Of a stretch of 64,000 bases of DNA, positions 8,014 through 44,505 are shown in pieces. The stretch lies in NCBI GenBank assembly GCA_964457085.1, contig CAYWDM010000002.1, positions 116,037 to 180,036 on the forward strand. The letters run 5' to 3'. The notes under the pieces were generated by a model. It was not told the origin of the DNA. It searched no databases and saw only the letters and a list, made by a program, of their open reading frames with translations. The DNA comes from an uncultured Pseudomonadales bacterium (GTDB lineage Bacteria > Patescibacteriota > Microgenomatia > UBA1400 > PJMF01). A program made the position numbers and the translations under genes. How positions within the stretch are numbered: the first letter of the stretch is position 1; each line of letters begins with the position of its first letter.

Positions 8014-8049
8014 TTGCTTGCTTTCCAAATTTACTGTAAATGAGTCGAT

Positions 8050-8077
8050 TTGATTTCTTCCGGTAACTCGGTATAAG
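8050..8077 (+). promoter_or_regulatory. Putative sigma70-like promoter (TTGATT-16-TATAAG) upstream of the 8113 ORF.
   Basis: Hexamer match and spacing seen in the sequence. Confidence 0.3.
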
Positions 8078-8112
8078 ATGTTGTTCTAGTACCTTATTTT
8101 TTTTGAAAGCAG

Positions 8113-9627: not shown

Positions 9628-9672
9628 CTTGATCGTTTGCACCGAAAAGTGCATTGACTTGAAAATAAAAAA

Positions 9673-9697
9673 CCACCTCGAAAGGGGTGGTTTTTTG
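9673..9697 (+). terminator. Rho-independent terminator after rpsO.
   Basis: CCACCUC-GAAA-GGGGUGG (GNRA tetraloop) followed by U6. Confidence 0.8.
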
Positions 9698-9768
9698 GTT
9701 GTACAAATAACGAGAGTGATCTGAGGTGAATGATTGATTTTGATCAGTAATCTCTGTACAGTGATGGT

Positions 9769-10134
9769 ATGGGTGTAAATGCTACTATTTCTAATACCAC
9801 AAATGCCGTTCAGTCTGGCATAAATGACCTCCCACTTTCAGCTGCAGAACAAGCATTGAAAGATCGAATTGATCGTTATAACCAATTACCCGAAGTTAAA
9901 GGTGAAGAGTTGGTAGATCAGTACTTGGATCTACAGACCACATCGACAGTGATTAAATCAGCTGTGCAGATGGTACAGAGCGATGCTCATACAAATTTGA
10001 TTGATCAAGATACAAAACAGACCATGACTGCAGAAATTAAAACTGCGAGCCAACATCTCCTTGGTCAAGCTTCTGATTTTTTAACTGTGTGCAAAGAGTA
10101 TAAAGACCAAAATGGTACAAAGAGTACTTCATAA
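9769..10134 (+). CDS. Hypothetical protein, 121 aa, first gene of the accessory region.
   Basis: ORF ending 6 bp before the 1047-aa gene, so probably co-transcribed. Confidence 0.45.
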   Translation: MGVNATISNTTNAVQSGINDLPLSAAEQALKDRIDRYNQLPEVKGEELVDQYLDLQTTSTVIKSAVQMVQSDAHTNLIDQDTKQTMTAEIKTASQHLLGQASDFLTVCKEYKDQNGTKSTS

Positions 10135-10139
10135 GTAAT

Positions 10140-13100
10140 ATGCCAAATGAAAACATCCCCTTCCTAAAGGAAATCCAAAAAGGCTATTTGCCAAATGCAA
10201 AAAATGCAGAATCTGCAAATGCAGTTTTTGACTTAGTGGCAGATGAGGCTAAATCTGTAATGGAAATGGGTGAGCAGGCAGAGGTAGTTTCGAGTGCTGC
10301 ACGTCAAGCGATTAATGAAGTCTTAAAAGGAGAACAAGTCTGGACGACCGTTTTGGAATCGGTTCAAAAAAAGTTGATGGATGGCGTTGGCAATATGGAT
10401 TCCCTTCGTGAGCTCCGAGCTTTGCAGGTGTTTGTCAAAGAAAATTTACCGATACTTTCTCAGGGTAGATTAGAGAAAAGTGGTACTGGTGAGGGTGCAA
10501 GGCGAGAACGTGCTGAGATAGTGTTAGAAGTGCAAAACATGGTGGTGAGCTCTGTTGCGGAAAAATTGGCAGACACCAAACATTTACCGCCCAGAATTAC
10601 ATTTGTACAATCTTGGCAAACTGCGATTCCTGATTTAAAGCGGAGGCTAGGAGTTGCTGGCAAAACTGAACTCTCCAAGGAGATTGACAACTTATTGGAT
10701 GCAAGTACACCATCAGGCAATGACGCACTACTTCAAGTAAATAGGATGTTTTCGGAAGCGAAAATTACTGAATTTGTAGCTCGTTATGAGGTGAAATCAG
10801 AAGCTGATTCAGAATCTGCCACCACCATGTCTCCACAGGGCGAAGTGTATGCAGCATTTCTGCAACAACAGCTGGAATCTTTTGATGCCGGGCAGCATCA
10901 AATAATCAACACTCAAGTTACTCAATTAGAAGAACAATTTTTGAATGACATATTTGCTGGGATCTGGCAGAGAAATGGTAAACTTTCGAAAACGCTAGAT
11001 GAATTACCTGATGATCGTAGAGGTAACAGAGCTATCTCCGAGATAGTCAAGATGAGTGTGGAAGGTGGTAATCTGGGTGATTATTTATTAGCTTTGGGGC
11101 AGTTAAGTAATGAACAGCGAAGAATTGCTTTCCAAAACTCATATGATGCTTGGAATAAAGTTCCTAGAACCGCAGAGGAAAAGTCAGAAGCAGCAAAGAT
11201 ACTATTGGTGGCCTTTGATAGGGAGACAGACGGTGAAACCAATTACGCAGTTGAACAGCTGCAAAAGAGTGCTGGAAATCCTGATGTAGTGCAACTTCGG
11301 GCCGAGTCAAAAGCAGAACTGACGAAGGAAGCCATGGGTGAGCTTACATCCGATTTATTCACTATTGATCTGACAAATCCAAGTTACAGACTCTATGTGC
11401 CTGAGTTAGTCAGTAAGCTGATCGATAAGGGTGTAGATACTCGGAGGTTAGCCGCGGCTCAACTAGCGAAACAAGAAATATTCCAAACTACAATTACTGA
11501 TATTCTAGAAAAACACATGCCAAAAGATGTCACACAGGCACAACAGTTTATCGATGAGTCTAGATTTGCTTTAAAAAATGCACAGAAATTGGAATATTAT
11601 CGACAAGGAAAAGATGGCTTTGTGATTCGGAAGGACTTGGGTGAGCGTGACAATCAAGTGCTGGAGCGTCGTAAGCAACAAATGTTTTTAGTAGGCTTCG
11701 TACGCCATTTGTTAAATCAACCTCAACATGCACCAGAAGCAGTGACTGACATGCGGCAGTATTTTGCAGATGCCGAGAAGTTTGGAGTTACCGCCAAAAT
11801 CTTGATCGATATTCATAACTCTGTCTCTACCGCGATTGTGGCATTTAATAAGAAAATCGAGGCTACAAGTGTGGGAGCTTATCACAGAGAAAGTGCTGCA
11901 ATTGACTTTACCGACCACATGACACGGGTTATGAAAATCCCACCTCCACTTGGTGTTCATATGCTCACCATGACTGAAGCAAAAGGTCTAGAGAATTATG
12001 GCTGGGGCGGTGAGGATCGCCCAAGCACTGGTAATGTCGGAATATATACTGACAATGCTGAGGATTCGAGAGATCAGGTTATAGCTGGGTATGCAGTGAA
12101 AGATGTTCTAAAAAGAGCTCAGATGAAGGTTGATAAATCAGGGATTGTCCCGTTATTAAATACCGGAGCTGAGCTAGATTCTTTTGAGTCTAGACTGGCC
12201 AGACATGAGTCATTGCTCAAGCCAGGGTTTGGAGGAATGTATGAGGGCCAGCAATGGCACAATGTTGATAGATTTGACAATCTAATCAAAAATGATCCAT
12301 ATGTCGATCTACAAACAAAAGCAGCGGAGTCTTTAGTTGAGCCTGATGAGCAGGCATTAAAAGCAGCCATGGAGAAGTTGGCACTGACAGGTAAAAAAGG
12401 AGATGAGCTATCATCAGCCGTAGATTCTTGGGGATATCATTGTGAAAATGATTACTCAAGACTTGGTTTTGCAGAGAAAGGCCTAATTAGGTTGGGAGGT
12501 GGTAGTAGCACACTTGCGAGTGAGAAGCACAGGTATGAGCAAAGCGCCGAACAGTTAACTGGCGAGAAATTCAATTTACTTGAGAGTGCAGATCGGTTGC
12601 GTTTGAGAAATACTCTTGAAGCTAGGAAGAAAGCAGCGCAAAAGAAATTGGCTACAGAGATTGCTACGAAGATCAAGGGAATTAGTGCAAAAGTAGTTTC
12701 TGGTGAAAGCATGGCTGCTGAGTATGTAAAAATGATGCTTAAAGATCCAGAGATGCCTTCACTGGAGGTCGTTGATTACAGCCAAAATTATCGTACATTA
12801 AAGGTGATTGCAGCTGATGACATTAATACGGTGCAGACTGATCCTCGCCTTGAAGTTATATATCGTACTTTCCAGAAAGCGAGAGAGGCTTATGGGAAAA
12901 GAGTGTATTCAAAGGTGAATAACTTAGTGGCAAATCGTGCCTATGGTACAGAGACTCAAGCGATAGAGGATGCAGTTGGAGAGTTGAGATTAAAATTAGG
13001 ATATACGGAAGCTAGAGAATCTATGGGGTACAGTAGAGAGCCTTCGCCACCAAAAGTTGATTTAACTCCGATCAGTCGAGCTATCGAACCTGTTCTCAAA

Positions 13101-13283
13101 AAAGGCTATGCACTCAACACTCAAGCAATCAATTTGAATTCAATAAAATCAGAGCCATTCAAGCAAATGCCAGGTGGTTCAGAAGATTCTGAACAGGTAG
13201 TGCTCAAAAAGAAACAAGAGCTTGAACAGAGACAGCAGAAACTAGTGATGGCAGCAACGCCTTCACCTCAGCAGTCATCGTAA
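10140..13283 (+). CDS. Large hypothetical protein (1047 aa), helical and charged, no recognisable catalytic motif.
   Basis: Uninterrupted 3.1-kb ORF with consistent composition and no signal peptide. Confidence 0.6.
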   Translation: MPNENIPFLKEIQKGYLPNAKNAESANAVFDLVADEAKSVMEMGEQAEVVSSAARQAINEVLKGEQVWTTVLESVQKKLMDGVGNMDSLRELRALQVFVKENLPILSQGRLEKSGTGEGARRERAEIVLEVQNMVVSSVAEKLADTKHLPPRITFVQSWQTAIPDLKRRLGVAGKTELSKEIDNLLDASTPSGNDALLQVNRMFSEAKITEFVARYEVKSEADSESATTMSPQGEVYAAFLQQQLESFDAGQHQIINTQVTQLEEQFLNDIFAGIWQRNGKLSKTLDELPDDRRGNRAISEIVKMSVEGGNLGDYLLALGQLSNEQRRIAFQNSYDAWNKVPRTAEEKSEAAKILLVAFDRETDGETNYAVEQLQKSAGNPDVVQLRAESKAELTKEAMGELTSDLFTIDLTNPSYRLYVPELVSKLIDKGVDTRRLAAAQLAKQEIFQTTITDILEKHMPKDVTQAQQFIDESRFALKNAQKLEYYRQGKDGFVIRKDLGERDNQVLERRKQQMFLVGFVRHLLNQPQHAPEAVTDMRQYFADAEKFGVTAKILIDIHNSVSTAIVAFNKKIEATSVGAYHRESAAIDFTDHMTRVMKIPPPLGVHMLTMTEAKGLENYGWGGEDRPSTGNVGIYTDNAEDSRDQVIAGYAVKDVLKRAQMKVDKSGIVPLLNTGAELDSFESRLARHESLLKPGFGGMYEGQQWHNVDRFDNLIKNDPYVDLQTKAAESLVEPDEQALKAAMEKLALTGKKGDELSSAVDSWGYHCENDYSRLGFAEKGLIRLGGGSSTLASEKHRYEQSAEQLTGEKFNLLESADRLRLRNTLEARKKAAQKKLATEIATKIKGISAKVVSGESMAAEYVKMMLKDPEMPSLEVVDYSQNYRTLKVIAADDINTVQTDPRLEVIYRTFQKAREAYGKRVYSKVNNLVANRAYGTETQAIEDAVGELRLKLGYTEARESMGYSREPSPPKVDLTPISRAIEPVLKKGYALNTQAINLNSIKSEPFKQMPGGSEDSEQVVLKKKQELEQRQQKLVMAATPSPQQSS

Positions 13284-13348
13284 ATTGCTGATTTAGTTTT
13301 GCCGATTGCTGACATGTTAATTTCAGAAATGAAGAAGTGGTGACTTCA

Positions 13349-14092
13349 TTAACTATTTGGCTTGAAGTCTTTTGGAAAAGGATGAGCTGAGGGGTAGTTT
13401 TGTGTCCAACCACCACCATATTTTTTGTTGGCCAAGAGTATAGCTCGCTCTCCGGGATCAATCACGATTAGCTTGCCATCAGCAGTGCGTAGTAGCCCTT
13501 TAGCTACCAAACCCTGAAGGATTGAGTCAAAAATTTCTTCTGGTTTATTATTTACCTCGTTGGTGATTTTGTTGGTGTCTTTTTTAGAGATCACTACTGC
13601 TGCCCATAATCGTTGATATGGCCCATCAGTATCATCTTCGCTTTTGCCAAGAAATGAAAAGGCAAACACAAAATCTCCATGTTCCCAGCCACCTTTTTTT
13701 GAATCACAGGGAATTAGATCAAAGGCTGGTTTTCCCAGTAACCCATCTATTACAGTTTGACCGCGACTGTGTGATTGCTTGTCAAAACAGGTTTCATCAA
13801 ATTTGCGAACAGGTACAAAGATACCTATTGTTTTCATGCCACTCTCCACTGCTTGTTTAAATGACTGATCTGCAGTGATTGCAGCTTTTATCTTGCCAAG
13901 AATTTCAGTGAGACCAGGGCTCATTTCTTGAAGCGGTTTGATTTTGTCTCCGTGTAGAGTTTCGCCAGTTCTGCCAAGAAAAAGTGGTGGTGTTTCCTGT
14001 TCCTCAACGCCGAAAAAACCTTCTTTTCCTGGTCCATTTTTGCCAATTCCTGCTTTTCCAATTCCTGCTTTGCCTGCAAGTGCCTGTGCCAT
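13349..14092 (-). CDS. Module protein A1 (247 aa), paralogous to the 19230..19985 protein and divergently transcribed from giant gene B1.
   Basis: The C-terminal half aligns with A2 (WEHGDFVFAF...SKKDTNK... versus EHGWALFVMSGKDTNK...). N-terminal GKAGIGKAGIGK micro-repeat. Confidence 0.6.
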   Translation of the reverse strand: MAQALAGKAGIGKAGIGKNGPGKEGFFGVEEQETPPLFLGRTGETLHGDKIKPLQEMSPGLTEILGKIKAAITADQSFKQAVESGMKTIGIFVPVRKFDETCFDKQSHSRGQTVIDGLLGKPAFDLIPCDSKKGGWEHGDFVFAFSFLGKSEDDTDGPYQRLWAAVVISKKDTNKITNEVNNKPEEIFDSILQGLVAKGLLRTADGKLIVIDPGERAILLANKKYGGGWTQNYPSAHPFPKDFKPNS

Positions 14093-14154
14093 AGTTCTGT
14101 CTCCCAGATCATATTAGCACTAAAAGCCTATGTTTTGCATCATAAAAATCAGCT

Positions 14155-17100
14155 ATGATTATTTTGGAAATGATATTGGAAGCGACAACAGTGACCGGAG
14201 CTAGGCAACATGGATTTGACGATCTTGTTGTGGCTCCTGAGGATCCCGTATCAGTACTCAGAGATTTGAATTGTGGTGAGGTGAGAACAAAAGATACCTC
14301 ATACCTAAAAAGCCAAAATGAAGTTTCGGATATGGTTAAGGCCACAAAAGAACTAAAGTGGCCAGGTTTTTGGTACGAATTACTGCAGGGAGCTTGGGAT
14401 TATAACGACTGGAGTAAAGGTAGTCCTCAAATTACCATTACTTTTGCTGGTGGTGAATCAATTTCACTGGCTCAGTTTGTCAGTGAGTGTGCTGCAGCTG
14501 GTGGTTTAAAAAAACTCAAACGTGGTCGAATTCAAGAAGTGAGTGTCAGCAATAACATTCGCGGAGATACTGGACTGCGACCTGTAAATGTGGTGTTGAC
14601 TGATCACGATGAAAAGGACGGTAAAAAACCACTGGGAACACATGGGCGAGGACTAAAAATTGCCAGTACTTGTGTTTTTGCTGGCGAATTGGCTAAAGCG
14701 ATTTCATATGAGTCATGGGTGCCAGAAATGGGTATGTGGTACGGTGAGGCCGGCATGCATCGGGATGAAGATGACCCAAAAGCTCCAGAAAATTTTCAAA
14801 TTAAATACAAACGAAATAAGGAATTGCAGACAGATAGAACTGTAATTAGAGTAACAGAGCCTGCAGAGGATTTGGTAGAAGCACTAATTTCATTTCAAGA
14901 TTGGTTTTTACCAGTCAATGGCAACTACCGTTTCCAAAGGATGGAGGCACAATCTGCAGATATGGTGCCTAATCGAGCTACGATTTTTGCCAACAAAAAA
15001 CACGCTCAAGAACCCCACGATGCTGCGGTTACTCCTTCAGAGCTGAGGTGGACGTATGGGCAAAATAAACTGGATGAGGCCGATGGTGTGGAACCACCTA
15101 GAGTCGAGATTCTATCGCGGGAATTATTGCCAACTGCACCAAATCCTATTAATTTTGTGTTTATTGATGGTTTGAGGGTGGGAGTGCCGGGAGCTACATT
15201 TTGTCAAATCTATGCTTTTTGGGGCTGGGGCAAAGGGACTAGTCATGGATACAATCCTGGTCGATCAAATGACTCGCTTAAAATGACCGGTGATATTGAC
15301 GATTTGTTGGCAAAAACATTAACGCTTAACACTAATGCAGCAGTTTTTTTGGAAATCATGGTTGCGAATTTAAATGGCCACAAAACGTATGAGGGTACAG
15401 AAGTGTCATATCTAGATGCTCTCGCTGGAAATGCAGCATCAAAGTCAGCACTGACACATGCATGGGAAGAATTAAGGATGGCAACTAATTCACCTGCAGA
15501 TGTTTTGATTACAGACTCTAAAGACGATTATGATCGGGCAAAGCGTGAGCAAAAAGTCGCTTTATTTTTGCCAAAACGATGGACAGCAATTTTGTGTGAG
15601 ATTATTCCAGGTTTGACTACTGCAGGCACGGTTTTTTCTCAAGAATTTGAAGAGGTTCAAGCGAAAGAGAGAGCCACTAGGCAGGCTATGGAACTGCAAC
15701 AGCGTGAAATGGAGGCTCGGGTTGTGAGAGAGAAGGAAGAGGCAATTGAACAATATAGAAAGAGCCGAGGTATTGTTAAGGAGGCATCAAATACTGGTGA
15801 AGTCATTAAAATGGCAAGACCAGAAAACAAACAAATAACGTTGCAACTGGCTTTATTGCATCTGGTGCATGCGTTGGCTATGGATGGTGGCAGAGTTGTA
15901 TCAGGCGATCCAAAGAAATTAATTCTCGAGATGCGAGCTGGTGGTTTTGATCAGTTGCCCAATAATACCAATTCGCTTGATGTACTTGGTGAATTTCTCA
16001 AATTGTACCTGGTGGTGTTTGGTAGTGACGCAATCGCAGAGTTAAAAATCGTGAGACAAGAAAAGGGAGTGTATTTCAATTTTGCCAGAAGTAAAAAAGC
16101 TGATTCTTTTGGCAACTACACCATTGAGGTACAGCAGGGTGAACTGGAACTACCACATGACAGTTGGGTGCAGTTAGAGTTGTCATTACCAGACACAACT
16201 GATGATAACGCATCCACTGGCGAAGCACGCCAACCACTAACTAGTGTTGATGGAGAAGATCTAGATTGTGCTGGATACCATGATGTGCTGACTCAGGCGA
16301 TTCGCGCCATCAGTAATTTGGATGGAACAGTTGATAGAAATGTCTATATGGCGAGTGAATATTTTGCACTGTATCCAGCAGCTGAAGCCAGAATGCGACT
16401 CCGCATGGAGATCGAAAAAACACAGCTTGAAATGAAGCTGTTATTCGATGAACAAAATAAATTGCGAGTGAGGTCTGGACTCAAGCCGTTGCCATATCCA
16501 GATGAATTAAAAACAACACGACCTCGGAAGGTGGGGCTTGGTGCTGGTATGGGACTACCGCCTGCGGAAGCCGACCTAACTCCAGCAGAAGAAGAGGAAA
16601 AGACTAAACAAAATCGTGAACATTCTGCAGCTCGAAAGTTACGTCAAAAAATGTCCAACATCTTGACGGGCAATGAAATTTTAGATGATGTTCCAGTCGA
16701 CTCTGAGATTATTAGTATGATTCACCCAGATAGCGTTCCGGGATTGAGTGAAAAAGGCGATGTGGAACGTATGCAGATGGTGCTGGCTGAATTACCCATT
16801 GGTGAGCGGATGAGAGCAACATTGGCTGAAAAGATGCGTGAGATTCTCAATCGTGTGGCAGTGCCAGACTTCTCACTCAGTTCAGGAGAATGGTTGCATC
16901 TGCGCGGATATTTAATTGATCACATTAATCCCGCTCATTCAATCACAACTACAGATAATTATGATGCTCTACCAGCCCTACCATTCACTGAGATGCAGGC
17001 AAATCCCTGTCTCAGATTTAATAAGAAAATTATTGCAGGACTATATTCAATTCCATGCCCACCTGGATTTCATCCGGTGGCAGTCAGTCATCCTGGCGGT

Positions 17101-18747: not shown

Positions 18748-18748
18748 T

Positions 18749-19237
18749 ATGATTAAACCACCCCAAATTGCAGTGACTTCATCGATCGGTGAGTATGATT
18801 TGTTTGAGTTGATGAATCTCAGCAAAATGCCACAGTCTCAAAAAGATACTTATTTATTGGATGCTAATGCCCTGATTTGGCAGGGTTTTTTGATGGAAAA
18901 ATTACCACATTTATTAACTCAACAACAGTATCAACAACTGCAGCAACAACTAAATGATGGCAAAACTCTCGAGGAAATTTTAGCTTGGTTATTGGAGCTG
19001 GTGCCGAATTTTACATATTTGCTGGCAGAATTCACTCGTGATGCAAAAGCAACATTGGTTGAAAAACAGTTTCAGAGTGAGATCTTGAGCTTGGAAAAAA
19101 TGCTCTCAACAGAATTAACAGAACAAAATTACCAGAAGATAAAAATCAGTCTTTCAAATTACAAGACTGCACTGCGACTTGCAGTACAACAAGAATGGCG
19201 TCAGATTATTGAGTTATGGCAGGCGTCAATTATTTAA
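18749..19237 (+). CDS. Module protein C1 (162 aa), small acidic helical protein paralogous to C2.
   Basis: Its start overlaps the B1 stop (TAATATGA) and a GAGGA RBS is present. EYDLFELM...ILAWLLELVPN...AEFTRDAK aligns with C2. Confidence 0.6.
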   Translation: MIKPPQIAVTSSIGEYDLFELMNLSKMPQSQKDTYLLDANALIWQGFLMEKLPHLLTQQQYQQLQQQLNDGKTLEEILAWLLELVPNFTYLLAEFTRDAKATLVEKQFQSEILSLEKMLSTELTEQNYQKIKISLSNYKTALRLAVQQEWRQIIELWQASII

Positions 19238-19985
19238 CGGTTGTTGTTGAGGCATAATTTTTTGGATATCTGCCTTTAACATGGGTATTGGAAAGAATAA
19301 TCACATGCTCGCCCATATCAACTTCAGCTTGCTCACCAGTACTCAGTTGTAATGGTTCATCTTCTGAAAGCATTCCAAGATCAACTAAATGCTCAAATAC
19401 TGCGGATGGATCCTTCAGACAATCAGCGGCAAATTTATTAGTGTCTTTACCAGACATCACAAATAATGCCCAGCCATGTTCTTGTTTTGGTTGAGAGCTA
19501 TCTTCAGTATCATTTGTAGCGGCGATTGCAAAATGAATCACTACTGCGTGGTCTTTTGATCCCCAGTTACCTAGTTTAGATTTGATTGGCTCTTCGACTG
19601 GCTCTTCGACTGGTCTTGAAAACAATTTTTTTACAAAACTAAGTCTAGTTTTTTGACTGGTCTTCGTTGTTCGTGTTGAGCTGTCTAAAAACTGAATAGG
19701 AACCACCTGTAGCCAAGTTGTGTCGCCAGGTTTCATTTGTGACTCTGGAATGGGGTCACCTGCCAAAACGGCTTGAATGTCTTTTCTTTTGAGTACATTT
19801 TCAATTACAGGATCAAGAATTAGTTTCTCAATTTGAGAAGGTTCAAGACCTCTATCACTATGTTCTGGTTGTGGCAGTTTAATAAACTTAAATTTAAATT
19901 TTATTTGACCGTCATCGACTTCTTGTAAATCGGGTTTGCCATCAAGATTTGGTTTTGAGGGAGTAGATTCTGAGATTTGAGTCAT
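19230..19985 (-). CDS. Module protein A2 (251 aa), paralog of A1, divergent from B2.
   Basis: Alignable with A1 over the C-terminal 120 aa. Contains a PVEEPVEEP micro-repeat. The 3' end overlaps C1 convergently by 8 bp. Confidence 0.6.
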   Translation of the reverse strand: MTQISESTPSKPNLDGKPDLQEVDDGQIKFKFKFIKLPQPEHSDRGLEPSQIEKLILDPVIENVLKRKDIQAVLAGDPIPESQMKPGDTTWLQVVPIQFLDSSTRTTKTSQKTRLSFVKKLFSRPVEEPVEEPIKSKLGNWGSKDHAVVIHFAIAATNDTEDSSQPKQEHGWALFVMSGKDTNKFAADCLKDPSAVFEHLVDLGMLSEDEPLQLSTGEQAEVDMGEHVIILSNTHVKGRYPKNYASTTTVK

Positions 19986-20065
19986 GCTAATTCCTTTTTT
20001 ACTCTACTTCAGAATACCACGGAGTACTTGATCTGGACAGTAACTATCAGCTATTCTGGAGAAGT

Positions 20066-23000
20066 ATGACATTAATGGATGTCCTTGGTTTTGGTGGCGT
20101 CATGTTTCGTGGCTCAAAGAAGTCAGGTGTGGATGGTGTGCCCCCCATGATTCCAGTTGAGATGGGTGACCCGCAGGCAGAGCTACGCAATCTCGGCCCA
20201 GAATCAAAGGTTAAGGGTACTTCATATAACGATCAGCAGAACGAAGTACGAGAGATGATTGATGCTACCAAAGAAAAGCGTTGGCCAGGTTTTTGGTATG
20301 AATTACTGCAGGGTGCATATGAGTACAACGATTGGAATCGGGGATTACCACGGATTTTAGTATATTATGCCGGAGTGGCTGAACCAGTGAGCTTGACTCG
20401 GTTTGTCTCTGATCGTGGTCGATTTTTCCATCGCAAAGTTGAAAGAGTTGAAATCAAAAACTATATTCGAGGCGATACTGGACTACGACCGCATAATGTC
20501 GCCGCAACTCTTCATGAAGAAAAAGATAATCAAGTTGGTTTGAGTGCTCATGGACGTGGGATGAAAATTTCATCCACTGCAGCCGCAGGTCATTTGGCGA
20601 AAGGCATCACTTTTGAGTCATGCGTACCTGGTATTGGTGCTTGGTTTGGTCGTGGTGAGATTGCACGGGATGAGGAGGATCCACGACCTTCAGATACATT
20701 CCAACTGCGGTATAACAATAATCCTGCATTGAGAGCAAAAGAGACCATTTTTACCGTACTTGAACCAAATAGTGCTGCTTTGAAAGCCTTGTCTGATTTA
20801 CCCAAATGGTTTTTACCCACGAATCCCGCATATCCAAGCTATCGTCTTGATGCAGAGCCAACCGCAACACGACCCAATAAAACTACTATATATGCTAACC
20901 AAAAGTTTGTGGGAGCTGAGAATAGTCTCGCTTTCTCTGAAAGAGAATTAAATTTATTTGGAAATAGTGGATTAAAATCTGAAGCTAATGCAGTTGAACC
21001 TGCTCGGGTTGAAATATTACCGGATAACTTGACTGGAAAGCGACGGGGCAAAATCGACTACGTATATGTTGATGGATTGCGAGTGGCAGTTGAGGGTGCC
21101 CAGTTTGCTAATGTGTATGCCTTTTGGGGGTGGGGCAATGGTGATCATGGTTTTAATCCGCGTCGTTCCAATGATTCCTTGAAGTTGGCAAATGCAATGA
21201 ATTTTTTACTAGGTGCCACGTTGTGTCGTTGTCCAAATCCTGAGGTATTTTTATCCATTCTACGTTCAAATTTGAATGATAAGGCCACCTTTGAAGGGGG
21301 TACCGGCATTTTTGAAAGACATTGGTACGACCTTTCAAAAAGTATGACTGGTGAAGCAAAAGCTGCCATGAGTGCTGCTTGGGGTCAGTTGACTACCGAA
21401 ATTGGTGTCAAAGGCAGAGTGTATGTCACATCTGAAAAAGAATCAAAGCAACGAGCCAAGCGAGAGAAAAAACCAACCATTTTGATGCAGCAGAACTGTT
21501 TAGCAATGTTGATGGTATCGAGATCTGATCTAAGGACTGTTGAGTCGGTGTTTGAAGATGAGGCCAAGGATGCAGAGGCACGTGAGGCTCAATTGAAATG
21601 GGAGAAAGATAAATTAATTCGTGAAAAAGAAGAACTGAAAAAAGAGGCTAAAAATAGAGACGAATATCTAAAGTTAGAGGCGGCAAAGGAAGCCGAGGCT
21701 AACGCCAAAAAGCGAACTGGTATTAAAGAGTATGCCGAAAGTACTGGAGAATTTCTCCGAGTGGCAGCACCCGATGATCCATCAATTGCAGTTGAGATGG
21801 CAAAAATAAATTTAATTAATTTATTTATGCTCAACCAAGGCTCTTTTAAACTAGAAAAAATTGGCCTTTTTGCTAAAACCGGGAAATTGGTAATTGATTT
21901 GCAGATGCCTGAGCTGGTGACGCTGCCGAGAAATGTTAAAGACATGGGACCGGTTGGTGATTTTGTGTTAAATTTTTTAGCCGCTGGTTCCACGACTGCT
22001 ACAGCCGAGGTGAGGTATGTGCGCAATTCAGAGGGGGTCTATTTTCATTTAGGTCGGTCGATGATTGACGAAAGGATTGATAAGTTTGGTAACTTCAGGA
22101 TTTTTGTGAATCAGGGTTCACTAGACATGACCGACAAACATCTAGTGAGAATCACACTCGATTTAGGAGAAAATGATGAGACAAGATTTAACGGTGAAGT
22201 GGCAAAGATATTTGAGTCATTGCAAAAGGCTGATGGCACTCCTGATGTAGATCGGTATCTGGAAAGTCAGTATTACCATGATTTTCCACCAGGTGAAGAT
22301 AGGCTTAAAGAAAAACGCAAAATGGAAGCGGAGCTACAGCAATACGAAAAGCACTTAGCTGAAGAGAATAGACGTCGACGTCGTGTTGGCCTGCCGCCAT
22401 TACCGAGCAAATACAATGCCAAATCAAGATTTGGTGGGCATGACGAGTTTGAAGATGAACCTGCATCTGGAGGAAGAGCCAAACTCCCCGCACAACGTGA
22501 TCGCAAAACCTTAGATCGTATTAGACGTTCTGAAGAACGAGCGATCGGTGATTCTGGTATCGATATCCAAGATGCGATCTTATCGCTGATGCACCCAGAT
22601 GCCAGGCCAGGAATTACTACGCATGGCACTGAGAAGCGACGGCGCATGGTACAAGAATCACTGTCTGGAAACGAGCGGCTTAGAAATGAAGCTGCAGCTC
22701 GGGCTAGGGAGATTTTTAAGCGACAATTGATCCCAGATTGTTCGATGTCGTCTAGTGAGTTTAGTCGGGTGAGACCATACCTTATTGACCATATCGACGA
22801 TGAAAACTTTGGCACTGACGATTACGACATCTTGAGTGGTTTTGAGTTTGGCCAGTTGAGTAATTTGCCCAAATTGAGGTTCAATAAACCAATTGGTTCC
22901 GGACTAGGCTCACTCCCTTGCCCTCCTGGGTACAGGCCAGTTGGGTATTATCACCCAGAGGGCGAGATTAAAGGACTGCATTTTTCAGGAAATTTTGAAC

Positions 23001-24136
23001 GCAATGTTTTTGCCATCTCATTACCTCGTGGTATTGATAAAGGCCTAACGGTCTACTATCGAAAGTTGAAATCATTTGCTGATACCACAGAGCCGACGGA
23101 AGAAAATCGTCGTTGCAGAGTGAAGGTGGAAACATTAAATGGTCCATGGTCTGAGCTGTTGATTGCATTACGCGATAGTCCTTTAAATGAAAAACAAAAA
23201 GCCGACATTATCATTCGAGCTTGGTCTCAGCGGGGCTTTATCTATGATAAGTCAGAGGCAGGACATCGTAAGTACGACCCGTATGGCTCGATTGATAGCC
23301 CTGAGTTTATGAGTGCTATTCTTAATTTTGGAAATGGTACTTGTGGGCATGCGGAAAAAGGTTGGCAGGGTGCGGGGACTGCTTGTAACTTGGCGGTTCG
23401 AAAAGTTACCAGTTATCTTGCTGGTGCTAATGGCGGTTTCTCGATGCGTGAAAATTTACATGGCTTGATACAGGTCTACATTAAAGATAGGTGGGTATTG
23501 GTAGAGCCACAAGTCGGATATATAGATCCTGGATATGAGTTAGAAGAAATACCAGCTCCATATCGTGAGAAATTTACTCGTTTGATTGAGGCGATACCTA
23601 ACGCAAAAGTTACTTCCCCAGAGCGTTTATCAGCGTTGCCAGATGTGCTTTCTGAAAACACAGAAAATTACACCAGCATGATGGAAGAATTAAGAATGAA
23701 ATATGATGAATATTTTGGTGATGGAGAACAGCTCACGCTCAGTGACTTGATGGTAGCTGTGCGTTCCGGTTTTGTCCAATTTGACAAACGCAAACTAGCA
23801 CTCTCACTTGCTAAATATTCAGCTCTAACCTTAGCTGGGGCATTTGCAGTACATGAAATTACACCAATGATTCCGAAGTTAGCTGAAATGACATTACAGC
23901 TTTTGGACTCAATTCCTCCAGAAAAATTAAGAAATATAGCAATTGGAACCATAGTGTCCATAGTCGCAATATCATATTTAGGTACCGGGAAGATTGGATT
24001 TGAGATCGGAAAATATATTGAAAGTCGTCGGTTAAGTTTAGCTTTTGCTTCCGATGAAACAGCAGCACTTCCAGATAGTTCAAGTGATGGTGGTGAAGAG
24101 AGCCCTTTGCCTGCGATACTACCAGTAGTAGACTAG
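20066..24136 (+). CDS. Giant protein B2 (1356 aa), paralog of B1 with a transglutaminase-like Cys/His core and C-terminal transmembrane-like helices.
   Basis: Shares the motifs WPGFWYELLQGAYEYNDW, IRGDTGLRPHNV, SAHGRGMKISS, YAFWGWGNGDHGFNPRRSNDSLK, GNGTCGHAEKGW and LHGLIQVYIKDRWVLVEPQ with B1. Confidence 0.7.
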   Translation: MTLMDVLGFGGVMFRGSKKSGVDGVPPMIPVEMGDPQAELRNLGPESKVKGTSYNDQQNEVREMIDATKEKRWPGFWYELLQGAYEYNDWNRGLPRILVYYAGVAEPVSLTRFVSDRGRFFHRKVERVEIKNYIRGDTGLRPHNVAATLHEEKDNQVGLSAHGRGMKISSTAAAGHLAKGITFESCVPGIGAWFGRGEIARDEEDPRPSDTFQLRYNNNPALRAKETIFTVLEPNSAALKALSDLPKWFLPTNPAYPSYRLDAEPTATRPNKTTIYANQKFVGAENSLAFSERELNLFGNSGLKSEANAVEPARVEILPDNLTGKRRGKIDYVYVDGLRVAVEGAQFANVYAFWGWGNGDHGFNPRRSNDSLKLANAMNFLLGATLCRCPNPEVFLSILRSNLNDKATFEGGTGIFERHWYDLSKSMTGEAKAAMSAAWGQLTTEIGVKGRVYVTSEKESKQRAKREKKPTILMQQNCLAMLMVSRSDLRTVESVFEDEAKDAEAREAQLKWEKDKLIREKEELKKEAKNRDEYLKLEAAKEAEANAKKRTGIKEYAESTGEFLRVAAPDDPSIAVEMAKINLINLFMLNQGSFKLEKIGLFAKTGKLVIDLQMPELVTLPRNVKDMGPVGDFVLNFLAAGSTTATAEVRYVRNSEGVYFHLGRSMIDERIDKFGNFRIFVNQGSLDMTDKHLVRITLDLGENDETRFNGEVAKIFESLQKADGTPDVDRYLESQYYHDFPPGEDRLKEKRKMEAELQQYEKHLAEENRRRRRVGLPPLPSKYNAKSRFGGHDEFEDEPASGGRAKLPAQRDRKTLDRIRRSEERAIGDSGIDIQDAILSLMHPDARPGITTHGTEKRRRMVQESLSGNERLRNEAAARAREIFKRQLIPDCSMSSSEFSRVRPYLIDHIDDENFGTDDYDILSGFEFGQLSNLPKLRFNKPIGSGLGSLPCPPGYRPVGYYHPEGEIKGLHFSGNFERNVFAISLPRGIDKGLTVYYRKLKSFADTTEPTEENRRCRVKVETLNGPWSELLIALRDSPLNEKQKADIIIRAWSQRGFIYDKSEAGHRKYDPYGSIDSPEFMSAILNFGNGTCGHAEKGWQGAGTACNLAVRKVTSYLAGANGGFSMRENLHGLIQVYIKDRWVLVEPQVGYIDPGYELEEIPAPYREKFTRLIEAIPNAKVTSPERLSALPDVLSENTENYTSMMEELRMKYDEYFGDGEQLTLSDLMVAVRSGFVQFDKRKLALSLAKYSALTLAGAFAVHEITPMIPKLAEMTLQLLDSIPPEKLRNIAIGTIVSIVAISYLGTGKIGFEIGKYIESRRLSLAFASDETAALPDSSSDGGEESPLPAILPVVD

Positions 24137-24160
24137 ATATAAATAAATATACATAAACCT

Positions 24161-24709
24161 ATGGTTACTGAGATGGCTCCAACAAAATCAATAGACGATT
24201 ACTCAGTTTTTGATTTGATTGGTGTTGAGTTAACACCAGAAGAACAAGAAAGCTATATCTTGGAATTAAATGATGAGGTATGGACTCGGTTTATCGAACA
24301 ACGGTTACCGTTTTTATTGACCGAAACTCAGTTGGATGAGCTGCGTGACCAACTTACTGAGACAATTCCATTTGATCAGATATTAACATGGCTGCAGCAG
24401 CTAGCTCCAAACACTCCAGAATTAGTTGCAGAATATACCCGTGATGTTAAAACTGAAGCCATTGAGAAGAGTTTGCTCGCACAATTGGCTCAGTGTGAAA
24501 AAATTCTAGCTAATGAAATTTCTGAAGAACATCGACTGCAACAACAAGAGCGACATGAACGGCTGCAGGCTGCTATTGGCTACGCACAACAGCAACTGTG
24601 GGATGATGTCGATCGTGTCCTCAACAGCTCAGAACCATTTGTGATAGGTAGTGAGGGATATGCAATTAATAAAATCGATTCAGTTGAAGTAGATGAGGAA
24701 TCAAAATAA
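24161..24709 (+). CDS. Module protein C2 (182 aa), paralog of C1.
   Basis: DYSVFDLIGV...ILTWLQQLAPNTPELVAEYTRDVK aligns with C1; same position relative to B2. Confidence 0.6.
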   Translation: MVTEMAPTKSIDDYSVFDLIGVELTPEEQESYILELNDEVWTRFIEQRLPFLLTETQLDELRDQLTETIPFDQILTWLQQLAPNTPELVAEYTRDVKTEAIEKSLLAQLAQCEKILANEISEEHRLQQQERHERLQAAIGYAQQQLWDDVDRVLNSSEPFVIGSEGYAINKIDSVEVDEESK

Positions 24710-24712
24710 ATC

Positions 24713-25321
24713 ATGATTGAAAATAACCAAGCCACATCAGCAGTTGGAAGTAAAATCAATCTGGCAGATGTGCCAAAAATGCCAGAGAATAGTTCGCCAG
24801 GTATCAAAGCTGAAGTTGAAACACACCTGCAGGTGGCGGTTGATACCATTGAACATGCCTTAGCTGCATTACCAAATGCTACTCCACAAGAGATTAATGA
24901 CCAACTCAAAACGATTCAAGGACTTCGTGACCAAGTCAATCAAAAAAACCAGTCCTGGCAACAACGATTAGAAGCAATTCGGGCATTGAATCAACAAATC
25001 AATGCTTTCAAGGCAGGAGCAAGAGAGGCAGCGGATGTACGACCACCAGCAGGGACACTACGAATTAATAGTGCTTCCATGAGGGCTCTTCTTGGTACGC
25101 TTGGCGTTTCATCTTTACCTGCTTTCGATCACGATGTTTTAAGTGCGACCTCAACTATAGGTGTTAATTTAAATCAAGCTGAAGTCGAATCACTTCGAAA
25201 AGAGCGAGATGCTCTCGGTGATGTACCATTAGAGCATACAGGTGCAATGGATTGGATCATTGCCAAACTCGATGAAGCCGCTGAGGCAGTTCGTGCAGCT
25301 GCGAGATTAACTGCAACATAA
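24713..25321 (+). CDS. Hypothetical protein (202 aa).
   Basis: ORF 4 bp after C2, polar/helical. No recognisable motif. Confidence 0.45.
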   Translation: MIENNQATSAVGSKINLADVPKMPENSSPGIKAEVETHLQVAVDTIEHALAALPNATPQEINDQLKTIQGLRDQVNQKNQSWQQRLEAIRALNQQINAFKAGAREAADVRPPAGTLRINSASMRALLGTLGVSSLPAFDHDVLSATSTIGVNLNQAEVESLRKERDALGDVPLEHTGAMDWIIAKLDEAAEAVRAAARLTAT

Positions 25322-25349
25322 TTTGATATCTTAAAAGATAAGGATATAT

Positions 25350-25940
25350 ATGTCTGAAATAAATGGCGTTAAAGAACTCGAATCAAGATTGAGTGAAAGT
25401 GCAAAGCGGAATTTAGATGTACAGCGAAGTGTGTATGAGCACCAAGATGCTGAATCATTACGGGAGAGTATTCAAACATTTAATGCCCAAAACGGATCGC
25501 CTGAAAGTACTTTTGCTTGGCTGAAGCAGCGAGCAGACAATCATCCTAGCGATGTTGGTCATCATGTTGCCCCATTCGATGGTGAGAAATGGGATACGTA
25601 TGCCGCCATGATGTTGGCAGGTCTTGAGGTGGTAGCGACAAATCCTGAGTTGGCAGAGATCGCTCAGCCAGAGCATTTTTTACAGGTGTTGCAGCTCATT
25701 AGCGACCACGTCAAAAATTCAGGATTAAAAATCGGCGAGAAGCTTAAGCTTTTTGGTTCTCCAGCTCAATTAAAAATTGATTGTGCCACATTTTTAGAGA
25801 TGGGAAAAATACTGATAGCTAACCAGAGTAAACTGGAGCCAGAATCAGCCCCAGTATCCGCCCCAGTATCCGCAATTAGCCATCTGGATTTGGATGATGG
25901 CCCTCTGGGTCAACATGGTCAAGGTGTAAAGGTTTCCTAG
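25350..25940 (+). CDS. Hypothetical protein (196 aa).
   Basis: ORF with a short SAPVSAPVSA repeat near the C-terminus. No recognisable motif. Confidence 0.45.
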   Translation: MSEINGVKELESRLSESAKRNLDVQRSVYEHQDAESLRESIQTFNAQNGSPESTFAWLKQRADNHPSDVGHHVAPFDGEKWDTYAAMMLAGLEVVATNPELAEIAQPEHFLQVLQLISDHVKNSGLKIGEKLKLFGSPAQLKIDCATFLEMGKILIANQSKLEPESAPVSAPVSAISHLDLDDGPLGQHGQGVKVS

Positions 25941-26233
25941 TAGTCTTTTTGTTATTTTGGTTACTTCTTATCGAATAGTAGACATTACTACAGCTATTGC
26001 TGTTGTGGCTCTGTTATAATTACCCAGTAAGTAATTTGGCTCGTCAGAGGATGAGTCTAGTTTAATTTTGGAAAACGGTTGAGAATTCAAGAGAGATGAT
26101 GAGGATGGGTGATAACTCCAGTTGGCATTCAAATAGCACAACTCGGACACTTTCATTGCTTGTCTTTTCTCCAGAATGCTCACGTTTTCCCCTAAGTTGT
26201 CAGTGATCTGGCAGCAACACAGAAAGGACTGTT

Positions 26234-44499: not shown

Positions 44500-44505
44500 A
44501 ATAAG

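Follow-up and report, generated by a model that had tools for sequence, protein, structure and literature searches.

In the arrangement typified by E. coli, rpsO and pnp form an operon in which the pnp leader is processed by RNase III. Here we ask what separates these two genes in an uncultured member of Patescibacteria (CPR), from whose metagenome-assembled genome we analysed a window of 64,000 nucleotides (the whole stretch of DNA, to which all coordinates refer), and what the genes lying between them may do. Comparison with related loci, family searches and examination of the sequences point to a long-resident, lineage-specific accessory mosaic at ~9.7-26.0 kb, a structural and evolutionary reading that we consider highly probable. 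Within it lies a so far undescribed gene cassette with a large protein, T, at its core and two partners, C and D.

Boundaries of the insertion and comparison with relatives

Ten open reading frames, A, B, C1, T1, D1, C2, T2, D2, E and F, lie between rpsO and pnp (Table 1), in accordance with the insertion proposed in a preliminary description of this DNA. rpsO in fact starts with the ATG at 9358 and encodes 89 aa, and the same 89-aa gene is called in an independent assembly. The strong rpsO terminator, already noted in that description, has a 9-bp stem (AACCACCTC/GGGGTGGTT) with a GAAA loop followed by T5; it was missed by a pattern scanner and found on direct reading of 9672-9697, and in the closest relative (L002) an equivalent hairpin of different sequence occupies the same place. 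This terminator is the left edge of the insertion, as had been thought, whereas the right edge, previously set at 26233, is near 26000, just before TGTTATAAT, as the last ~220 bp before pnp consist of this promoter-like element and a leader hairpin that belong to the backbone and are kept in relatives. The element, a putative promoter element of pnp, aligns with TG(n)TATAAT in the corresponding position of L017, L021, L032 and L009, and L002 carries TGGTATAAT about as far from the leader, while the hairpin arms (GAGAATTCAAGAGAGA / TCTTTTCTCCAGAATGCTC) are kept in L002, L009, L017, L021 and L032. Since rpsO is closed by a terminator and pnp is preceded by a promoter-like element and a leader, the two genes look like separate transcription units in this lineage. 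The locus shares with the E. coli-type operon the neighbourhood of rpsO and pnp, seen in most of the relatives, and a long, stable and conserved leader hairpin before pnp, but differs from it in the strong terminator on rpsO, in the promoter-like element of pnp and in the accessory genes, up to 16 kb of them, that occupy the spacer.

The comparison set comprised 27 Patescibacteria loci containing both rpsO and pnp (pnp 52-65% identical), with a common backbone nusA-infB-rpsO-pnp-(DeoC-like). In 16 of them the two genes are 24-306 bp apart, the other 11 carry unrelated inserts of 0.6-4.8 kb, and the island genes are absent from all 27. Homologous genes in the gap were found only in the closest relative (L002-L004; pnp 90% identical), which has a smaller set in another order, one C-T-D cassette followed by A'-B', in 9.7 kb. 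The relatives, then, do not uniformly carry the island genes. The rpsO-pnp gap is a tolerant insertion site, into which unrelated genes have come repeatedly in this clade, and the 16 close gaps, the 11 unrelated inserts and the partial sharing by the closest relative alone argue for an accessory insertion at a hotspot.

Table 1. Positions in the window of the genes, regulatory elements and T1 domains discussed in the text
Feature	Position	Strand	Remarks
rpsO (ribosomal protein S15), left backbone gene	9358..9627	+	Pfam Ribosomal_S15, E 1.7e-32
rpsO intrinsic terminator	9672..9697	+	read directly; left edge of insertion
A, 121-aa orphan, first gene of A-B pair	9769..10134	+	no family match
B, 1047-aa orphan, second gene of A-B pair	10140..13283	+	two relatives only
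C1, 247 aa, divergent from T1 (cassette 1)	13349..14092	-	
T1, 1530 aa, core of cassette 1	14155..18747	+	
T1 Bergerat-fold (GHKL/GHL) ATPase-like + transducer-like domain, aa ~30-495	14242..15639	+	
T1 second, degenerate Bergerat-like alpha/beta domain, aa ~535-680	15757..16194	+	
T1 transglutaminase-fold core, aa 1050-1165 (C1106, H1145, E1160)	17302..17649	+	Pfam PF01841, E 2.6e-8
T1 C-terminal hydrophobic helix, putative membrane anchor	18652..18708	+	Kyte-Doolittle scan
D1, 162-aa helical partner	18749..19237	+	starts 1 nt past T1 stop (junction read)
C2, 251 aa, divergent from T2 (cassette 2)	19230..19985	-	26% identical to C1
T2, 1356-aa T1 paralogue (cassette 2)	20066..24136	+	36% identical over 1251 aa
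D2, 182-aa D1 paralogue	24161..24709	+	32% identical
E, 202-aa orphan	24713..25321	+	sub-threshold Pfam matches to coiled-coil families only
F, 196-aa orphan	25350..25940	+	no match in Pfam, NCBIfam, PADLOC, PHROGs
Extended -10-like element TGTTATAAT upstream of pnp	26012..26020	+	read directly; backbone
pnp 5' leader hairpin	26070..26190	+	MFE -57.3 kcal/mol, z -4.7 vs shuffles; backbone
pnp (polynucleotide phosphorylase), right backbone gene	26234..28813	+	Pfam RNase_PH (two domains), RNase_PH_C, KH_1, S1

Composition and modules of the island

Eight of the ten ORFs have no match in Pfam, NCBIfam, PADLOC or PHROGs, the same number that had been described as lacking a recognisable family, and profile searches of the inserted proteins gave a significant Pfam match in T1 only (Transglut_core, 34.5 bits; cut-off 23), T2 falling short of the cut-off with 18 bits. 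The GC and codon-usage profile suggested in the preliminary description shows no shift of the island relative to its flanks. Searches for integrase, transposase and phage structural genes with Pfam and PHROGs returned none, and neither flanking direct or inverted repeats nor a tRNA were found at the site. No sign of recent transfer was detected in composition or in mobility features.

The ten genes fall into an A-B pair, two cassettes of C (on the minus strand), T and D, and the two orphans E and F, for which no homologue was found in any fetched relative locus. B had been regarded as an orphan and is nearly so: among 5.8 billion sequences it has two homologues, P0009 (46%; GCA_018830045.1) and B' of L002 (20%). 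It has no Pfam match and no PDB profile match, and since it has no TM segment it is expected to be soluble. In L089/L090, where the A-B pair stands alone, the B homologue is immediately preceded by a 139-aa gene 62% identical to A. The island is hence not a single system, as had been suggested, but a mosaic in which at least three modules have distributions of their own; what holds of that suggestion is that it includes a cassette that is conserved and undescribed. The three-gene repeat seen in the preliminary description is likewise real (Table 1; E 3e-15 for C1/C2 and 5e-29 for D1/D2), and the domain order of T1 and T2 is alike according to local HMMs. T2, however, branches outside the clade formed by T1 and the trios of other genomes, and the two cassettes are anciently diverged paralogues rather than a recent tandem copy.

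Organization and distribution of the C/T/D cassette

The C family HMM finds matches upstream of T, in divergent orientation, in eight instances. The C proteins are of ~240 aa with a Lys/Gly-rich N-terminal tail, the intergenic region between C and T measures 62-80 bp in the near subfamily, and C1 has no TM, no family match and no PDB match. D, helical and of ~160 aa, follows T in all seven full instances; it starts 24 nt past the stop of T2 and in L087 and L091 overlaps the T gene at its end, and it also occurs downstream of P0036, a distant T member lacking the transglutaminase (TGase) domain (E 4.5e-21). The cassette recurs in varied contexts (L005, within a glycosyltransferase/Wzy cluster, L006, L087, L088 and L094), and the literature searched holds no description of it or of the T protein. 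The C/T/D cassette is an undescribed, conserved unit.

A word-index search gave seven relatives of T, and an exhaustive HMM search of 1.84 billion cluster representatives gave 88 clusters (~89 proteins), apparently confined to Patescibacteria. By tblastn against 50,697 phage and 72,556 plasmid records, T1 has no match, nor is there any T-like match in IMG/VR. A context rich in toxin-antitoxin genes (Gp49/HTH, MNT/HEPN, Fic) was seen in L005 only. This single context, the lack of matches in the phage, plasmid and IMG/VR records and the lack of PADLOC and PHROGs matches speak against a conflict reading. One distant T member lies directly downstream of ftsA-ftsZ, a position that would suit a cell-biological role.

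Architecture of the T protein and comparison with known systems

The T proteins (1356-1530 aa) have no signal peptide. Their first module is a GHL-type Bergerat ATPase-like domain with transducer, from which a charged coiled coil leads to another Bergerat-like domain, a degenerate one; a beta-rich domain and a transglutaminase-fold domain come next, and one or two hydrophobic helices lie towards the C terminus. The N-terminal module is not covered by any Pfam model and no HATPase match was obtained, Pfam recognising the TGase core only, and T has no sequence match to any PDB chain. The AF2 model of this module has a pLDDT of 79, both AF2 models being built on an alignment of seven sequences only. 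The GHL motifs appear in canonical order (YE75xxQ[G/N]79xxD82; N133..G140xxP; G161xHGRG166; T229), and the transducer part contains an invariant R370-S-x-D-S loop. Where motif I should have its Mg-coordinating Asn, T1 and T2 have Gly, and of 83 family members only 31 keep the Asn; in motif II, 73 of the 83 have Asn in place of the adenine-contacting Asp. Because of these replacements, ATP hydrolysis by T may have been lost or altered. The Cys-His-Glu triad of the TGase domain is invariant in the seven close relatives and nearly so across the family (Cys 62/63, His 57/58, Glu 55/57). A hydrophobic segment follows this domain in 41 of the 63 TGase-bearing members, none of which has an N-terminal one; the membrane anchor is predicted by hydropathy scan only, with weak scores for T1 and T2 (1.5-1.7).

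T shares its motif order (the E..D helix, the GxG loop, GxxGxG and the conserved Thr) with the GHL branch of GHKL ATPases, which includes GyrB/ParE, MutL, Hsp90, Topo VI-B, MORC and SMCHD1, and with the last two also a coiled-coil segment past the ATPase module. It departs from them in the absence of sequence matches to Pfam HATPase models or PDB chains, in the motif I and II replacements, in lacking DNA-binding, endonuclease or client-binding C-terminal domains, and in its fusion to a second Bergerat-like domain, a transglutaminase-fold enzyme and a predicted membrane anchor. The transglutaminase-like cysteine peptidase superfamily (PF01841) includes the bacterial membrane protein TgpA. T resembles this superfamily in its Pfam match, its conserved Cys and His, the usual GxC...H...[DE] spacing and its predicted membrane association, but the third triad residue is Glu instead of the usual Asp, the domain is predicted to be cytoplasmic and comes after more than 1000 residues of ATPase-like modules, and neither the MoxR/VWA partners nor the N-terminal multi-pass membrane domain are present. 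Sacsin, a eukaryotic giant protein with repeated Hsp90-like domains, DnaJ and HEPN and no transglutaminase domain, is similar to T at the fold level only.

Among systems of biological conflict, the Shedu type I-D protein VcSduA combines a GHKL ATPase with a DUF4263 nuclease, the N-terminal ATPase being proposed to control the C-terminal effector (PMC12137116). T has the same layout of N-terminal GHKL regulator and C-terminal effector enzyme in one polypeptide, but the effector of VcSduA is a PD-(D/E)xK nuclease instead of a transglutaminase-fold enzyme and all four canonical motifs are kept (PMC12137116); VcSduA also lacks a membrane anchor and D or C partners, and no sequence homology between the two was detected (PADLOC negative). 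The paraMORC-HEPN proteins, in which a toxin-type effector is joined to a GHKL ATPase, and the giant HEPN-helicase-transglutaminase proteins of R-M-like systems, in which the transglutaminase-like peptidase is a proposed effector, share one domain type each with T but lie in restriction-modification neighbourhoods, unlike the cassette described here (PMC3710099). A GHKL ATPase and a transglutaminase-like peptidase in one protein have not been reported in the literature searched.

Discussion

We propose that T would be tethered to the membrane at its cytoplasmic face, that its N-terminal module would dimerise or close on a nucleotide or ligand, as in GyrB, MutL, Hsp90 and MORC, and that this closure would gate the transglutaminase-fold cysteine enzyme, be it a peptidase, an amidase or a cross-linker. 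D would be an obligate partner of T, either adaptor or inhibitor, and C may be its regulator or its substrate.

Whether the cassette serves defence or the cell's own biology is the question on which the readings divide. That it is a dedicated anti-phage or abortive-infection system, with the GHKL module sensing the invader, the transglutaminase-fold protease cleaving cellular or viral proteins, D as inhibitor or antitoxin and C as regulator, is possible but doubtful: the architecture is like those of GHKL-nuclease Shedu (PMC12137116) and paraMORC-HEPN (PMC3710099), transglutaminase-like peptidase domains are proposed defence effectors in giant helicase proteins (PMC3710099), and the sporadic distribution, the contexts varying from genome to genome, the two divergent copies stacked at a hotspot and the toxin-antitoxin neighbours in L005 agree with it, yet PADLOC gives no match, a DNA- or RNA-targeting domain is absent, the motif I Asn is lost in T1 and T2, five of six contexts show no enrichment near known defence genes, and a membrane tether is unusual for the sensor of a cytoplasmic invader. 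Slightly less probable still, T and D could form a lineage-specific CPR machine tethered to the membrane, either a chaperone-protease of Hsp90/sacsin type or a cross-linker of proteins, with a task in the envelope, in division or in glycoprotein turnover, with A, B, E and F as fast-evolving structural proteins and the region accessory yet not conflict-related. The tandem pair of Hsp90-like Bergerat domains recalls the sacsin repeats, and the neighbours of some T genes (ftsA-ftsZ; the glycosyltransferase/Wzy/PMT cluster of L005; PBP genes within 6-10 kb of the L087 cassette), the native composition of the island and the apparent confinement to Patescibacteria fit such a machine. Most relatives lack the cassette, among them every one of the 27 genomes that share the backbone, so a core role of this type is unlikely; the neighbourhoods are moreover inconsistent, and because envelope genes abound throughout CPR genomes these adjacencies may be due to chance.

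The origin of the block leaves much less room for doubt. A mobile-element origin, the block being what is left of a prophage, plasmid or integrative element inserted beside rpsO, would account for a large insert of mostly orphan genes at a site variable among relatives, but the lack of mobility genes, flanking repeats and tRNA, the lack of T relatives in phage, plasmid and IMG/VR records, and GC and codon usage equal to those of the flanks largely refute it and make it very improbable. The absence of any insertion is refuted, in spite of the native composition and of the C-T-D and A'-B' genes between rpsO and pnp in the closest relative, whose version differs in gene number and order: ordinary conserved lineage genes are ruled out by the 27 more distant relatives lacking them, and an assembly chimera by the same arrangement in an independent Logan assembly and in the NCBI contig.

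An accessory mosaic with a gated, membrane-tethered T remains as a whole the best explanation, with a probability of roughly 0.55, its gated-effector mechanism joined to a conflict role being a tentative part to which we give less than even odds. A conflict or defence role of the cassette is plausible. Given its sporadic distribution, changing context, fast-evolving partners and two divergent copies stacked at one site, the cassette most likely has an accessory role in these Patescibacteria, of conflict/defence type or in membrane-proximal protein processing, rather than a housekeeping one.

Conservation of the rpsO-pnp interval

One genome per species was scanned with the PNPase of the window, and the nearest relatives proved to be Patescibacteria (CPR) MAGs with 52-65% identity in this protein. 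The backbone nusA-infB-rpsO-pnp, often followed by a DeoC-like gene, is conserved in the 27 loci having both rpsO and pnp. These two genes lie 24-306 bp apart in 16 of the loci and 0.6-4.8 kb apart in the other 11, where the intervening ORFs are unrelated to the ten that we find in the window (A, B, C1, T1, D1, C2, T2, D2, E and F). The 11 inserts, made up mostly of orphans together with a Band-7 protein, a CitMHS transporter and a ferric-reductase-like protein, are also unrelated to one another, except for the pairs L010/L011 and L014/L020, each of which has a common insert. No homologue of any of the ten proteins was found in the 27 backbone loci. Only the closest genome (L002-L004, on 15 contigs), in which pnp, rpsO and nusA are 90%, 91% and 89% identical to those of the window, has part of the island in common: its insert of 9.7 kb encodes a C protein of 242 residues on the opposite strand, a T of 1508, a D of 166 and the proteins A' and B' of 114 and 1011 residues. 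The A'-B' pair lies 3' of this C/T/D cassette, whereas A-B lies 5' of the cassettes in the window. The synteny comparison recommended in the preliminary description revealed, then, presence/absence variation, with 27 of 27 relatives devoid of these genes and the relative with 90% identity carrying some of them. Relatives do not uniformly carry the same genes, and the island is therefore an accessory insertion, as had been proposed, confined to a narrow lineage and placed at a site used repeatedly in the clade.

The edges of the insertion were examined next to those of the relatives. An intrinsic terminator, read from the sequence itself since a simple scanner missed it, stands directly 3' of rpsO (AACCACCTC-GAAA-GGGGTGGTT plus a T run), in agreement with the strong terminator described before; a terminator hairpin also follows rpsO directly in L002, the two hairpin sequences being different. 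At the other edge, conservation with L002 covers the last ~160 nt before pnp and is partial in L009, L017, L021 and L032. An extended -10-like element, TGTTATAAT, lies 5' of this conserved part, and TG(n)TATAAT occurs at a comparable position in the relatives compared for the pnp upstream region. The pnp leader forms a hairpin (-57.3 kcal/mol, z -4.7) whose arms are conserved boxes kept in the same five relatives; no Rfam family matches it at the gathering threshold, and it recalls the pnp leader of E. coli, which is processed by RNase III and autoregulatory. From this arrangement we infer that in this genome rpsO and pnp are transcribed as separate units; DNA placed between the terminator and the promoter-like element would disturb neither gene. 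As the promoter-like element and the conserved leader belong to pnp, the inserted DNA ends near 26000 and not at 26233, where its end had been placed earlier. Accessory genes in the clade appear to find a tolerated landing site between the rpsO terminator and the promoter-like element of pnp, and this gap is useful for locating further accessory cargo.

Features of the window, with positions in nucleotides
Feature	Position	Strand	Product or remark
nusA	4777-6117		
infB	6214-7719		short
Two orphans	7732-9225		93 aa and 370 aa
rpsO	from 9358		real start; Pfam Ribosomal_S15, E 1.7e-32
Intrinsic terminator	9672-9697		directly 3' of rpsO
A	9769-10134	+	121 aa
B	10140-13283	+	1047 aa
C1	13349-14092	-	247 aa
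T1	14155-18747	+	1530 aa
D1	18749-19237	+	162 aa
C2	19230-19985	-	251 aa
T2	20066-24136	+	1356 aa
D2	24161-24709	+	182 aa
E	24713-25321	+	202 aa
F	25350-25940	+	196 aa
Extended -10-like element	26012-26020		
pnp leader hairpin	26070-26190		
pnp	from 26234		domains RNase_PH x2, KH, S1
Arg/Gly-rich tail of PNPase	28350-28700		~110 residues
Compositional outlier	42673-45210	-	608-aa orphan and 234-aa family-2 glycosyltransferase
tmRNA	58082-58516	-	Rfam, 82.5 bits
tRNA	59259-59332	-	Rfam

Several other features of the backbone deserve mention. The spacing between infB and rpsO is ~90-160 bp in most relatives, and the two orphans found there in the window are for this reason a second lineage-specific insertion; the 370-aa protein has a C-terminal CxxC...CxxC and a 352-aa homologue in L002 (28% identity). 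The PNPase of the window ends in an Arg/Gly-rich tail with tandem repeats (GGDRGGDRGGRSGGFSGGRSGGFDRGG...), unusual for a bacterial PNPase and absent from the tblastn matches of 717-739 residues in most relatives. At the gathering threshold Rfam recognizes in the whole window only the tmRNA and the tRNA. The closest Patescibacteria MAGs are often deposited under names such as 'uncultured Pseudomonadales', 'Limisphaerales' or 'Methylococcaceae' (L009, L013, L014, L016, L019-L023 and others); all of them share the CPR-type backbone nusA-infB(501 aa)-rpsO-pnp, and the implausible names look like a labelling artefact in the public records.

Gene content and mosaic build of the island

The ORF boundaries of the island are identical in an independent Logan assembly, whose locus stops inside T2. 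Among the ten proteins T1 alone has an above-threshold Pfam match (Transglut_core), with T2 matching the same model below threshold; the other eight have no match in Pfam, NCBIfam, PADLOC or PHROGs, and PDB searches with profiles built on the N-terminus of T and on C, D and B returned nothing significant. The defence models of PADLOC-DB 2.0 gave no match for nine of the ten proteins and only coiled-coil noise (E >= 0.004) for protein E. The preliminary description had counted ten genes ahead of pnp, eight of them without a family, and both numbers are borne out; the profile-database search that it advised finds in Pfam the transglutaminase-fold (TGase) core and nothing else. Its view of the 1047-aa protein B as an orphan very nearly holds, B having only two relatives: P0009 from GCA_018830045.1 (46% identity) and the B' of L002 (20%). 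P0009 is preceded by a small homologue of A, 62% identical to it, and has no T-, C- or D-like gene within 10 kb. That B is far nearer to this copy, whose context is unrelated, than to that of the sister genome, and that the pair occupies the opposite side of the cassette in the latter, speaks for an A-B module that was independently acquired or replaced. For proteins E and F, none of the fetched loci contains a relative.

The duplicated three-gene module previously noticed is real: T1 and T2 are 36% identical over 1251 residues, C1 and C2 26% (E 3e-15), and D1 and D2 32% (E 5e-29). The DNA similarity of the two copies amounts to one stretch of 100 nt at 74%, the sole real internal repeat of the island, which encodes the most conserved T motif. 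Moreover, over 1062 ungapped columns T1 matches the T proteins of foreign trios at 40-44% identity and T2 at only 37%, and T2 branches outside the whole group formed by T1 and the foreign T proteins. The two cassettes are hence not recent tandem duplicates and, on these sequence comparisons, are either ancient paralogues or separate acquisitions.

Order and orientation of the cassette (C on the minus strand, then T and D) are constant in seven full instances from six contexts and in the partial L094, a 2-kb fragment. Outside the window and its closest relative, the cassette occurs in L005 within a glycosyltransferase/Wzy/PMT cluster that has toxin-antitoxin genes beside it, in L006 flanked by MFS and VIT-domain genes, in L087 adjacent to ribonucleotide reductase and tsaD, and in L088 on a short contig; a metagenome scan yielded only one extra locus, of 2 kb. 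A motif ATCAGCTA(T/C) lies 3-20 nt 5' of the T start codon in T1 (14130-14154), T2 (20040-20065) and L002 (9975-10000), with a looser version in L094, and may serve the cassette as a promoter or leader element.

Could the island be a mobile element or a recent arrival? GC content is ~0.42 in island and flanks alike, and the pooled codon-usage divergence between the island and the rest of the window (0.0114) falls below the maximum of 0.0156 obtained with random gene sets (0.0070 +/- 0.0022). The composition profile proposed earlier as a check therefore shows no deviation from the flanks, and recent horizontal transfer finds no footing in composition. No flanking direct or inverted repeats were found, there is no tRNA at the insertion site, and the island contains neither integrase nor transposase, so that it does not qualify as a classical genomic island. 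A prophage, plasmid or integrative element was likewise rejected, given these absences and the lack of relatives of T in mobile DNA: T1 gave no tblastn match in 50,697 phage and 72,556 plasmid records, and IMG/VR contains none to the profile of the T N-terminus. The sole compositional outlier of the window is the stretch encoding the 608-aa orphan and the glycosyltransferase (GC 0.33-0.36 against ~0.42 elsewhere), which may have been acquired more recently than the island.

Domain architecture of T and its partners

The giant T protein combines an N-terminal GHL-type module with a TGase domain and C-terminal hydrophobic helices. An exhaustive HMM search with the N-terminal module against 1.84 billion representatives recovered 88 clusters at E <= 1e-3, 40 of them at E <= 1e-30, and motif counts were taken from an 83-member alignment of the family (residues in T1 numbering). 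All four GHKL motifs follow one another as they do canonically, in the same secondary-structure setting, and the assignment of the module to a Bergerat alpha/beta sandwich with a transducer domain, as in the GHL branch, is solid. In canonical proteins motif I (ExxxNxxD) provides the catalytic Glu and the Mg-binding Asn, and motif II (DxGxG) the adenine-contacting Asp and the glycine loop. Motif I of the family reads Y-E75-x-x-Q78-[G/N]79-x-x-D82 (Y-E75-L-L-Q-G79-A-x-D82 in T1 and T2), with Glu in 81, Gln78 in 82 and Asp in 73 of the 83 members; the Mg-binding position departs from the canonical pattern, being Gly in 51 members, T1 and T2 included, and Asn in 31. Motif II, N133-...-G-x-G140-[LM]-x-P143 (in fuller form N133-x-(IRG)-G-x-G140-L-x-P), conserves its glycines and Pro, has Asn in place of the adenine-contacting Asp in 73/83 and carries a three-residue insertion in the subfamily of the window. 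With both departures, hydrolysis of ATP by T1 and T2 may be altered or gone. Motif III (T-L-G161-x-H-G164-R-G166, conserved in 77-82/83) stands just before the helix 164-176 of the AF2 model, and T229 of motif IV (82/83) lies on the strand 228-234. An invariant loop in the transducer part, R370-S-x-D373-S374, may play the role of a gamma-phosphate-sensing loop. A BFVD structure search returned only unnamed phage proteins of GHKL-like fold, and Pfam has no model for this divergent clade.

The TGase core of T1 (residues 1050-1165) scores 34.5 bits against PF01841 (cut-off 23); T2, 36% identical to T1 across the domain, stays below the cut-off with 18.0 bits, and distant family members score 24-50 bits. 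Cys1106, His1145 and Glu1160 are kept in all seven close relatives, and family-wide (63 members) in 62/63, 57/58 and 55/57 cases, respectively, with Asp in the two exceptions to Glu. The usual third residue of a transglutaminase-like triad is Asp; the domain is very probably an active cysteine enzyme in which Glu replaces it. A hydrophobic segment follows the TGase domain in 41 of the 63 members bearing it, although weakly in T1 and T2, and no family member has a hydrophobic N-terminus. This is at odds with a secreted protein or surface adhesin, and we infer a cytoplasmic protein with a C-terminal tether to the membrane. The TGase domain was found by a local HMM in 63 of 74 full-length members, and in one further by Pfam, which detects only this core in any member; source records name the proteins 'hypothetical protein' or 'transglutaminase domain-containing protein', one of them from Candidatus Daviesbacteria. 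In the subgroup P0032-P0039 no TGase domain was detected, while the GHL-like module is kept, and in P0036 also the partner D, which suggests effector swapping within the family. One distant member with a TGase domain, P0044 (1075 aa), lies directly 3' of ftsA-ftsZ (L093, GCA_007281175.1, 3349-9228), on a contig ending <=180 bp past its gene.

D follows T in every complete instance, starting 1 nt past the stop of T1 and 24 nt past that of T2 and overlapping the end of the T gene in L087 and L091. The distant P0036 of Candidatus Daviesbacteria (L091, GCA_016183305.1, 667-5297), which lacks the TGase domain, is likewise followed by a D homologue (E 4.5e-21), so that T-D is, by gene order, the most conserved pair. 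D is helical, without TM segment, and has no credible family match in Pfam or in the PDB profile search; the single-member Pfam matches to MazG-like (0.0023) and DUF5663 (0.031) are too weak, and the JGI label 'predicted metal-dependent peptidase' of one homologue lacks sequence support. C is present only with the near T subfamily and is always divergent from T, with 47-123 bp between them where both starts are defined; the two gaps in the window measure 62 and 80 bp. Its sequence changes more quickly than that of T: instances of C are 14-26% identical, the exception being C1 and the L002 orthologue with 55%. The N-terminal tail of C is disordered and Lys/Gly-rich, with G-[IV]-G-K-like repeats in several members.

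Possible function of the cassette

The domain order, the catalytic triad, the GHL-like motifs, the coupling of T with D and the sporadic, context-independent distribution are established features on which a model can be built. By analogy with GyrB, MutL, Hsp90 and MORC, binding of a nucleotide or ligand would make the N-terminal module close or dimerize, and this conformational change would control the TGase-fold enzyme, anchored on the inner side of the membrane. D could then be an adaptor or inhibitor and, because transglutaminase-fold enzymes act on Lys/Gln side chains or on peptide bonds, C could be a regulator or substrate. The Shedu protein VcSduA (PMC12137116) and paraMORC-HEPN fusions are proposed to control a C-terminal effector by a GHKL N-domain, and transglutaminase-like peptidases have been proposed as effectors in giant conflict proteins (PMC3710099). 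Shedu, however, has a DUF4263 PD-(D/E)xK nuclease, and none was found by Pfam or PADLOC in T1, T2 or their neighbours.

Since the cassette is rare and patchy, has fast-evolving partners and is present in two divergent copies stacked at a hotspot, it is most likely, as far as such genomic signs can tell, a candidate conflict or defence system. Against this role, PADLOC gives no match, toxin-antitoxin genes abound in just one of the contexts, and a distant family member is a neighbour of ftsA-ftsZ; a function of T/D as a chaperone-protease peculiar to the lineage, or one related to the envelope, is a serious rival. In a bolder reading, with a probability of roughly 0.3, T-D, joined by C in one subfamily, would be an undescribed class of system restricted to Patescibacteria, in which a new and highly divergent GHL Bergerat clade, in many members with a remodelled Mg site, would act as a ligand or nucleotide clamp switching on a membrane-tethered Cys-His-Glu TGase-fold enzyme. 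The latter would cleave or cross-link specific cytoplasmic proteins, possibly the Lys-rich tail of C, in an immune or cell-fate decision of ultra-small episymbionts.

The component folds are already known. Neither the fusion of a GHL module with a Cys-His-Glu TGase-fold enzyme and a membrane tail, nor the fixed partnership of T with D (and with C in one subfamily), is described in the family libraries or literature searched, whose coverage is incomplete. The earlier opinion that the island is the best candidate for an undescribed system is in this respect supported, with the corrections made here, by a conserved C-T-D cassette absent from those sources. Patescibacteria account for a large part of bacterial diversity, and most of their lineage-specific genes are unannotated; here one 'hypothetical' block becomes a defined, testable object, a rare conserved cassette whose core unites a clamp of the GyrB/MutL/Hsp90 type with a cysteine enzyme of the transglutaminase type, both of them well-understood folds. 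Should the clamp gate the enzyme, a GHKL module would be coupled in a new way to an effector that cleaves or cross-links proteins, and the cassette would be a candidate device for immunity or regulation in symbionts with reduced genomes.
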